From sequence record OP870145.1: a DNA stretch of 64,000 nucleotides. One strand, given 5' to 3'. The notes beneath the pieces are model-generated. The model was not told the DNA's origin. It searched no databases and saw nothing but the letters and a program-made list of their open reading frames with translations. Position 1 is the stretch's first letter, and every line of letters begins with the position of its first letter. This document shows, piece after piece, positions 1 through 37,137 of this stretch. The DNA comes from Escherichia phage vB_Eco_F26. The translations under genes and the position numbers were made by a program.

Positions 1-111
1 TCCTGCTGCTTTTGATGCCTCACGAATCTCATTGTTAATTTGACGAAACTCCGACTCAAAGTGACGACGAAGCTTATTTCGACGGATAAAAACTTCTGTA
101 TTGATAGTCAT
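1..111 (-). CDS. hypothetical protein, N-terminal part only (gene runs off window start)
   Basis: ATG at 111-109 preceded by GAGGAG Shine-Dalgarno; frame open to window edge (MTINTEVFIRRNKLRRHFESEF...). Confidence 0.4.
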   Translation of the reverse strand, partial: MTINTEVFIRRNKLRRHFESEFRQINNEIREASKAAG

Positions 112-170
112 GTTGTTCTCCTCTTGACTGATAGAAAAATTATACCACAGTCAAGAGGAAAAGTAAACAG

Positions 171-1298: not shown

Positions 1299-1628
1299 TC
1301 AATTAAAAAATAAATTTATCCAAGATTGTTCTTTAATTAAAAATGGCTCAGAATCATATGCCATTAAACTCTGTGTGATTAGTCCTTTAAAAGGCCCATC
1401 AATAAATTCCATGGTAAAATATGGAATTTTATTCATTAGCCGTGCATTAGGAGCAGTACATAAAACTCTGCATCCTTTGAATACACCCTTTTGTAATTTG
1501 TATTGCTTGGGATAAAATTCGCTCAAAATGTTATTATTCGCTAAAATTTCAAAATGATTCACCAATTTATTTTTAATAGTTTTTGGTGAAAAATAGAGAT
1601 ATTCGAAAAGCTGTGCGTCTGTCATCAT
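1299..1628 (-). CDS. hypothetical protein (109 aa), translationally coupled to upstream P-loop gene
   Basis: ORF track 1299..1679; ATGATG at 1628-1623 overlaps the TGA stop of the upstream gene (ATGA coupling). Confidence 0.5.
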
Positions 1629-2164
1629 TGCATTCCGATTACGAAAAACTGTGGACGAGTAATACCACCAATGCAACATTTACTATTGCAACAGTACTGT
1701 ACAGTGTCAATATGAGCATCATAAATCTTATCCATATCAGGAGATTTGACAGGCTCGTCAATTATATACAAAATTCGCGAAAGCGATAAACCTCTGAACT
1801 TGCTTCCTTTATTACCAATAAAACTGCGCACAGAATCAGTAAATAAACGAAAACGTATATCATCATTAGAATAACGCGAAAATTCCTTTTTAATGTCATC
1901 TGCGGAATTTTTAGCATAAACTGAAGTATTAGAAAGAACAATAACTGTTCCGCCATCATACAACCAGTTAGCAGCGAAGTTAGTCACAGCAATTGATTTA
2001 CCGGATTGACGTCCACCATCTATACGAAGTGTGCAATACTGCTTAAGTAAGTCTTCAAATGGCGGGATATATTCGTTTTTACAAATTTCTTCTACTCTAG
2101 CATCAGAATGGTGTGTAAAAGCATTCATCAGGGATAGATAAGGACCAGTTAAAAATGTTCTCAT
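1625..2164 (-). CDS. P-loop NTPase of unknown function (179 aa)
   Basis: Walker A GGRQSGKS near aa 50 and Walker B-like ILYIIDEP near aa 130 in the translated ORF. Confidence 0.6.
   Translation of the reverse strand: MRTFLTGPYLSLMNAFTHHSDARVEEICKNEYIPPFEDLLKQYCTLRIDGGRQSGKSIAVTNFAANWLYDGGTVIVLSNTSVYAKNSADDIKKEFSRYSNDDIRFRLFTDSVRSFIGNKGSKFRGLSLSRILYIIDEPVKSPDMDKIYDAHIDTVQYCCNSKCCIGGITRPQFFVIGMQ

Positions 2165-33996: not shown

Positions 33997-37137
<3,141 letters not shown>

Follow-up and report, generated by a model that had tools for sequence, protein, structure and literature searches.

The two genes considered here occupy positions 1299-2164 of a 64,000-nucleotide (nt) stretch of Escherichia phage vB_Eco_F26 (OP870145.1), referred to below as the window, and lie on its minus strand, as do all genes of its first 5 kb. 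They are the orthologues of vs.8 and vs.7 of phage T4, a conserved and non-essential accessory module, and in this window they are an ordinary instance of genes that were already known. The relationship of Vs.8 to the large terminase has been published (PMC13601566). Our preferred reading of the pair, which we put a little below an even chance, is that the two proteins form an accessory ATPase-adaptor complex that acts early in phage-host conflict, and that recognition by the immune sensor Avs2 is its cost.

The upstream gene (vs.8; 1625-2164) encodes 179 amino acids (aa), a predicted single-domain terminase-like ATPase that is 95% identical to residues 41-219 of T4 Vs.8 (NP_049732), with 9 of the 179 residues different. 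The downstream gene (vs.7; 1299-1628) encodes 109 aa, predicted to form two N-terminal helices and an SH3/KOW-like barrel, and is 97% identical to T4 Vs.7 (NP_049731), which has the same length. This length is counted from the ATG that overlaps the vs.8 stop codon; the mechanical open reading frame (ORF) is 126 aa. Vs.8 matches PHROG 1488 (E 1.1e-78; residues 3-179 on profile positions 2-177 of 177) and Vs.7 matches PHROG 2049 (E 1.8e-53), both classed as of unknown function. An earlier note on this DNA, written from the letters alone, recognized neither protein from T4 and placed the pair where T4 has ipIII and denV. Neither statement survives, because T4 carries vs.8 and vs.7 right after denV, and in the window ipIII and denV are just missing. 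A module foreign to T4 in that place would fit the fact that the pair abuts an internal protein (IP) gene in a window without ipIII and denV, but with homologues of 95-97% identity encoded by T4 directly downstream of denV there is virtually no chance that it is correct. The note would have given up its view for clear homology to T4 genes of established function: the homology is clear, whereas an established function for T4 vs.8 and vs.7 is not. Its description of the DNA has fared better. Both Walker motifs of a 179-aa P-loop NTPase are present, the 109-aa ORF does start within the NTPase stop codon, and 1299-2164 spans both coding sequences exactly. Its suggestion of a host-takeover or anti-defence module may or may not be right.

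One clue to the nature of Vs.8 is the setting of its two Walker motifs. Walker A (GGRQSGKS, aa 50-57; 1994-2017) aligns with SRQLGKT of the large terminase gp17, and Walker B (ILYIIDEP, aa 131-138, containing D136 and E137; 1751-1774), which is preceded by FRGLSLSR and invariant in close relatives, also aligns with gp17. The segment FRGLSLSRILYIIDE, in which an RG-x-S is followed by an hhhhDE Walker B, was aligned with its gp17 counterpart by hhalign. An xRQxGK[ST] P-loop together with an RG-x-S ... hhhhDE block is the signature of large-terminase ATPases. The gp17 used for this comparison was that of the window itself (ORF 35302-37134, its identity as gp17 confirmed), and the alignment matched Vs.8 residues 34-145 to gp17 residues 144-264, from Walker A to Walker B, with an E-value of 4.9e-5 and a probability of 68%. 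The secondary PHROG match of Vs.8 is PHROG 2, the terminase large subunit (E 1.4e-6), and PSI-BLAST connects vs.8 to T4-like terminases. Pfam Terminase_6N reaches 13.3 bits on Vs.8, below its cut-off of 22 (AAA_14 is sub-threshold too), and this weak match recurs in five of the ten distant members scanned (14.6-18.9 bits). With a deeper Vs.8 profile, gp17 chains come top of a PDB profile search at E-values of 0.075-0.15, which is below significance.

What Vs.8 does not have is just as informative. The protein ends at a conserved strand, FFVIGMQ, 42 residues past E137, and the hhalign match to gp17 ends at gp17 residue 264. There is no lid (subdomain II), no TTT C-motif (the coupling motif) and, within a total of 179 aa, no C-terminal RNase H-like nuclease domain. 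Judged from its sequence, Vs.8 is a single RecA-like domain descended from the ATPase core of a T4-type large terminase, but is not itself a terminase: without lid, C-motif and nuclease it cannot package DNA. It does keep the residues for ATP binding and hydrolysis, and is therefore a probable ATPase. In a 27-member family alignment, in which identity falls as low as 21%, no member departs from G51, G55, K56, A59, R113 or P171, and conservation of R52, Q53 and E137 is 90% or more, so the Walker residues persist in homologues. R113 (codon 1826-1828) has no counterpart in the gp17 alignment and may be an arginine finger or a sensor. It is a narrow family: 41 proteins among 1.84 billion representatives came up in an exhaustive profile search, mostly of about 165-185 aa, and at least one longer entry (P0037) is an ORF call running through the leader RNA described below. 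In the most distant vs.8-like proteins, P0061 and P0063 (E about 1e-4), His replaces the Walker A Lys (SARRSGHS and GPRQTGHT), and these may be inactive relatives or false positives.

Other identities for Vs.8 and Vs.7 were considered and set aside. A superfamily 1 or 2 helicase requires two tandem RecA-like domains with helicase motifs, of which Vs.8 has one domain only, and helicase or kinase assignments find nothing in Vs.8 beyond weak, sub-threshold AAA, helicase and kinase matches. NCBIfam and PADLOC gave no meaningful match for either protein, and PDB sequence searches gave none that was significant, the RNase A matches (E about 0.1-0.6) being spurious. Several genomes, e.g., OK274152, KR233165, and OR122689, label vs.7 or vs.8 as 'endoribonuclease' or 'RegB domain-containing'. 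A relationship with RegB was rejected, since hhalign against T4 RegB yields probabilities of 0.8% (vs.7 family) and 0.1% (vs.8 family), and these labels look like propagated errors. Still other GenBank records name vs.8 'terminase large subunit' or 'helicase-like'.

A high-confidence structure prediction gives Vs.7 two helices followed by what may be a five-stranded barrel of the SH3/KOW kind. Resemblance to SH3-type folds is weak (Z at most 4.6). The conserved core (aa 43-92; 1353-1502) is the sole part kept in the short homologues of Moon-type phages, and the 40 N-terminal residues are variable and missing from those phages. The core contains GVFKG (DGPFKG in the family consensus) and then DGPFKG. 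The G-x-x-G pattern of KOW domains is brought to mind by these GPFKG motifs. The window protein has no Pfam match in the copy searched, which was without PF26834; vs.7 homologues carry PF26834. Could Vs.7 be the missing lid of a split terminase? This was rejected as well, since Vs.7 has no similarity to gp17.

The two genes are tightly coupled. At the ATGATGA junction (1622-1628) the vs.7 ATG (1626-1628) overlaps the vs.8 TGA (1625-1627). This junction, GGAATGCAATGATGA, is kept in the loci of T4, RB69-like and Dhaka-like phages, CC31, Klebsiella phage Mexia and Moon, and it persists where the proteins are just 35-50% identical. Among the fetched loci, all those with both genes have the start codon of vs.7 overlapping or directly adjoining the stop codon of vs.8. 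Such an overlap leads one to expect a stoichiometric partner, and a stoichiometric Vs.8-Vs.7 complex, though not a universal one, is strongly suggested. The pair is also widespread. By tblastn, vs.8 is present in 1011 phage records and vs.7 in 929, so these ORFs are not chance, and the hosts of vs.8 phages include Escherichia, Klebsiella, Shigella, Enterobacter, Yersinia, Salmonella, Citrobacter, and Serratia. Synteny in relatives, proposed earlier as a check, bears the pairing out: vs.8 and vs.7 are adjacent across genera. Yersinia phage phiR1-RT (NC_019909) has an unannotated 99-aa ORF starting from the vs.8 stop (L017 3031-3330, plus strand). Given its hallmark, MVDGPFKK, this ORF is to be read as a divergent vs.7, one that tblastn with the window Vs.7 missed.

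The third component of the locus is an RNA. In most relatives, a structured RNA of about 145 nt that covaries across Tevenvirinae genera lies immediately upstream of vs.8. It is present in T4 and in Dhaka-, PM2-, CC31-, Mexia-, Moon-, phiR1-RT-, and CHI14-type phages, with full copies at, for example, L001 2690-2812 (minus strand; T4), L009 3835-3978 (plus strand) and L014 1729-1890 (plus strand). Its core, CCTGTAATAAGGTCGAGCCCAAGTGCGGTAA, is by eye far better conserved than the neighbouring proteins. It contains no conserved reading frame, and the nine loci carrying it that were searched gave no Rfam match at E-values up to 1. In the window only a remnant corresponding to the 3' third is left (2184-2228), with an AUGGAC box and the hairpin GCCA-AGGAA-UGGC. 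A covariance model of the element, R1, matches the window with its 3' end only (26 bits), the last 45 nt or so having survived, whereas full copies in other phages score 77-170 bits. The rest of the window leader has been replaced by a promoter cassette, and phage JEP6 likewise keeps just the 3' third. There is no other copy within the window. Elsewhere, R1 detects one copy ahead of vs.8 wherever the sequence of a T4-type locus extends far enough.

Evidence that this RNA is folded comes from compensatory change. A first RNAalifold run on nine sequences gave a poor consensus, after which a better, unbiased alignment (MAFFT, 21 non-redundant long-form copies) and manually drawn helices were used. 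In that alignment the hand-drawn helices are 90.5% paired, against 23-47% when their partners are slid, and two-sided changes number eight pairs, compared with 0-3 for the slid helices and 4.8 ± 1.0 for shuffles. RNAalifold independently yields a long-range helix, which covaries at four of four pairs and is built from at least six different sequences (CGC/GCG, CCG/CGG, ACCA/UGGU, CCUG/CAGG, ACAC/GUGU, and CUCGA/UCGAG). In an R1-based alignment, pairing reaches 91% and 15 of 30 pairs show two-sided change, although this alignment is fitted to the model. The G·U cells are compatible with the vs.8-sense strand only. A central strand has two possible partners, a 5' and a 3' AAAGG/AAAGC segment, and covariation is seen with each of them, which argues for a pseudoknot or two alternative conformers. 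In most loci 92-143 nt separate the leader core from the start of vs.8; in four the gap is about 500 nt, an IP gene having apparently been inserted there. As to a sigma-70 promoter inside the leader, TTTACA occurs there in some phages, with no consistent -10 element after it by eye. Two contigs of about 172-178 kb bear two tandem leader copies before vs.8 (L045 5051-5306, minus strand; L050 8965-9220, plus strand), and on inspection of its sequence L049 appears to bear a further copy, related but shorter. An unrelated 128-kb contig (L019) gives a 24.9-bit R1 match with no vs.8 nearby.

The leader also bears on where vs.8 begins. The 40-codon extension of T4 Vs.8 (120 nt) lies inside it (L001 2664-2783, minus strand, which is T4 64,793-64,912). 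In the window the extension is out of frame through a 7-bp indel, and in relatives it has no conserved frame. We rejected it as coding sequence, and the start of the T4 reference vs.8 is probably 40 codons too far upstream. A similar question arises over a 36-aa upstream ORF in the window (MDNSCAKEWP...; 2103-2213), which is preceded by a strong GGAGG and overlaps the vs.8 start out of frame. Its T4 equivalent has 19 codons and ends with ATGA on the vs.8 start. In other phages this frame differs: some have it joined in frame to vs.8, that of Mexia runs for two codons before a stop, Moon has it in a shifted register, and the PM2-type locus offers no ATG for it. With no conserved frame, it is treated as part of the leader and is probably not a gene.

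The cassette that has displaced most of the window leader is a putative IP-type early promoter. It lies 60-110 nt upstream of vs.8 (2220-2275) and is one copy of a 56-nt direct repeat, the second copy of which is upstream of ipII (2609-2664) and 89% identical. An exact 35-mer, GTTTACTTTCTCCTAGAATTGTGATAGTATATTCA, is common to both (2241-2275 and 2630-2664), with none expected by chance. We read the cassette as TTTACT, 17 nt and TAGTAT, with TG upstream. Read in this way it resembles the promoter consensus of T4/PST promoter/stem-loop (PeSL) cassettes, TTTACW-N17-TAYWAT (PMC4122927). By our own count the cassette matches the plain sigma-70 consensus at 8 of 12 positions, under the cut-off of 9 of 12 in a generic scan, which does not list it. 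The earlier claim of an early-type promoter shared with the IP gene is upheld. Early expression of the pair would follow from the type of promoter, and it agrees with a study in which the 'promoter of vs.8' served to express genes in uninfected Escherichia coli (PMC13243611). It has been proposed that PeSL cassettes mediate modular shuffling in the hyperplastic regions of T4-type phages (PMC2839356). The repeated cassette is likely to have been the substrate for loss of ipIII and denV by recombination of this kind.

The surroundings of the pair agree with such a loss. The first 3.2 kb of the window, a Tequatrovirus, are about 96% identical to JEP6 and T4. The T4 reference order is e-ipIII-ipII-denV-vs.8-vs.7-vs.6-vs.5-vs.4-vs.3-regB, and the window order is e-ipII-vs.8-vs.7-vs.6. 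Relative to T4, ipIII and denV are absent from the window and from JEP6, and as a result ipII adjoins vs.8 here. In the window, as in T4, JEP6, and other loci, vs.8 is placed between the IP/denV cluster and vs.7-vs.6-regB. BLAST inspection found a contiguous junction of the window type in a minority of records, e.g., G2469, JEP6, and probably Manna. The ipII orthologue (2278-2580) is 94% identical to T4 IPII across 86 aligned residues. Downstream of vs.7, as the earlier note had seen, the operon runs on into a GrcA-like gene and three small ORFs. These are vs.6 (929-1291), which encodes a GrcA-like glycyl-radical cofactor (PF01228, E 2.5e-18) in synteny with T4, followed by a vs.5-like gene, vs.4 and vs.3. 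The last of these (171-449) encodes a protein 99% identical to T4 Vs.3, or TadIV-1, which soaks up the type IV Thoeris signal as a sponge and is a proven anti-Thoeris protein (PMC13243611). It is very probable that the window phage carries this counter-defence. In a 158-kb relative (L012) a tRNA gene (44-117, plus strand; 69 bits) precedes the lysozyme gene e by about 2.4 kb.

The only functional result for Vs.8 comes from work on immunity. Evans et al. (Nat Commun 2026) picked out vs.8 when screening against EcAvs2 with AlphaFold 3, reported its Walker A and B motifs and its structural likeness to the T4 terminase ATPase, predicted Vs.8 in the EcAvs2 pocket with a bridging ATP and showed that T4 vs.8 is toxic on co-expression with this immune sensor (PMC13601566). 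On its role they did not commit themselves, raising the possibility of an anti-defence protein that Avs2 has come to recognize. Both genes are dispensable in laboratory T4 screens. In a CRISPRi-ART screen of T4, knock-down of vs.7 and of vs.8 was scored 'Not Fit', i.e., without a fitness defect (PMC11879866 supplement); the vs.8 guides listed, at 64,887-64,937, are at the annotated start, some 120 nt before the conserved Met. A deletion of about 7 kb from pin to vs.7 is tolerated in engineered T4-like phages.

How might these observations be put together? Vs.8, as the ATPase, and Vs.7, as the adaptor, would form an ATP-dependent complex in which Vs.7 supplies Vs.8 with a target-binding surface. 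The complex would act early on a component of the host or of host defence, and the terminase-like, ATP-loaded face of Vs.8 would be a side-effect liability that sensors of the Avs2 type exploit. The context is one of conflict, the neighbours being internal proteins and TadIV-1 and vs.8 being toxic with EcAvs2, but taken alone the conflict role is a shade more doubtful still than the whole. Several points weigh against this reading. We infer its three central elements, the ATPase activity, the Vs.8-Vs.7 complex and the conflict role. Every terminase-related sequence score is below curated thresholds. One lineage (L012, L013, L032, and L040) has vs.8 followed by the vs.5-like gene, without vs.7, and the partner is thus no absolute requirement. 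Conservation in phages infecting seven host genera is just as compatible with a housekeeping-type role as with a defence-specific one. The sole functional datum has Vs.8 as a trigger of Avs2 and not as an inhibitor (PMC13601566), and in individual tests of Vs.3-Vs.8 against type IV Thoeris, impairment of immunity was reported for Vs.3 only (PMC13243611).

Perhaps the complex faces inwards instead. Vs.8-Vs.7 could be an ATP-dependent factor that binds or remodels RNA or DNA, serving the transcripts or DNA of the phage itself, and it may bind its own structured leader RNA for autoregulation or as an RNA cofactor. This is unlikely. A single RecA-like domain without recognizable nucleic-acid-binding motifs and a barrel with such low SH3 scores (Z at most 4.6) do not speak for it, and neither does the lack of any fitness effect of knock-down in the laboratory. 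Moreover, the window phage and JEP6 have lost two thirds of the RNA and kept the genes intact. What if, conversely, resembling a terminase is the whole point? As a passive decoy, Vs.8 made early would occupy sensors of the terminase ATPase fold (Avs1-3, Upx, and similar) and so blunt their response before the real terminase appears, with Vs.7 modulating or masking the binding. A terminase-like fold with an ATP site, an early-type promoter, the predicted place in the EcAvs2 pocket with its bridging ATP and the engagement of EcAvs2 in cells all suit such a role. However, in the case that was tested, binding activates EcAvs2 and is toxic, which would harm the phage earlier in infection. A decoy would have no obvious need for the near-invariant catalytic E137 and the invariant R113, and it would leave the conserved partner and the leader RNA unexplained. 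We regard it as improbable, and as slightly less credible than a factor acting on the phage's own nucleic acids.

A role in packaging is very unlikely. Here Vs.8 would mix or compete with gp17 or the small terminase gp16 and thereby time or restrain packaging or the terminase nuclease. Homology to the gp17 ATPase core and the PSI-BLAST tie to T4-like terminases are what one would look for in such a modulator. However, Vs.8 has neither subdomain II nor the other regions beyond the ATPase core, and vs.8 is non-essential and has an early-type promoter. The T4 terminase is a late gene. A last idea, which we doubt but would not rank as low as a packaging role, is that leader RNA, Vs.8, and Vs.7 are one RNA-protein device of an undescribed kind. 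In one form, its own RNA would gate or regulate the terminase-like ATPase, or be what the ATPase is loaded onto, and the ATPase would act early against the host. If true, this would explain why phages keep a terminase look-alike despite exposure to Avs2. Compared with these, the early ATPase-adaptor complex in phage-host conflict is the reading we retain, tentatively.

Why does this matter for genes already known? Vs.8 and Vs.7 occur in roughly a thousand sequenced T4-type phages, including the best-studied of them, T4, and the puzzle is that an early-expressed terminase look-alike is kept though Vs.8 sets off Avs2. The coupled partner may alter how Avs2 sees Vs.8, and neither Vs.7 nor the conserved structured RNA before the pair appears in the main text of PMC13601566. 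The remaining interest is therefore in the function of a very widespread pair, in its overlooked partner and in the leader RNA, most of which, with ipIII and denV, the window lineage has lost. On the practical side, the probably misplaced start of T4 vs.8 matters for gene cloning and guide design.

Among known systems the nearest is T4 itself. T4 Vs.8 has the same position before vs.7-vs.6 and the same stop/start overlap as the window protein. However, its RefSeq model is 219 aa against 179, the difference being the 40 extra N-terminal residues, and its upstream neighbours are denV and the full leader RNA, whereas those in the window are ipII and the promoter cassette. T4 Vs.7 is coupled to vs.8 in the same way as in the window and shows no material difference. 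With N-subdomain I of gp17, Vs.8 shares the xRQxGK[ST] Walker A, the RG-x-S with a hydrophobic strand and DE, the RecA-like fold, and an ATP-site geometry close enough to trigger EcAvs2. In contrast, gp17 has 610 aa with lid and nuclease, compared with 179 aa and neither of these in Vs.8, and unlike gp17, Vs.8 has an early-type promoter and is dispensable. The predicted Vs.7 core may be similar to the small SH3/KOW barrels found in Spt5/NusG (KOW), KIN17 (an SH3-like tandem) and superfamily 1B helicases (SH3 inserts). The promoter cassette recalls PeSL cassettes, in which a repeated early promoter likewise flanks a variable gene, a likeness that rests on the promoter half. Finally, Ksap1 and Ksap2 are, like Vs.8, lineage-restricted small phage proteins, not terminases, with a terminase-ATPase-like sheet that activate Avs2 (PMC13601566). 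They come from other phage groups than Vs.8 (Dhillonvirus and Stephanstirmvirinae) and are likened to it here by their description.

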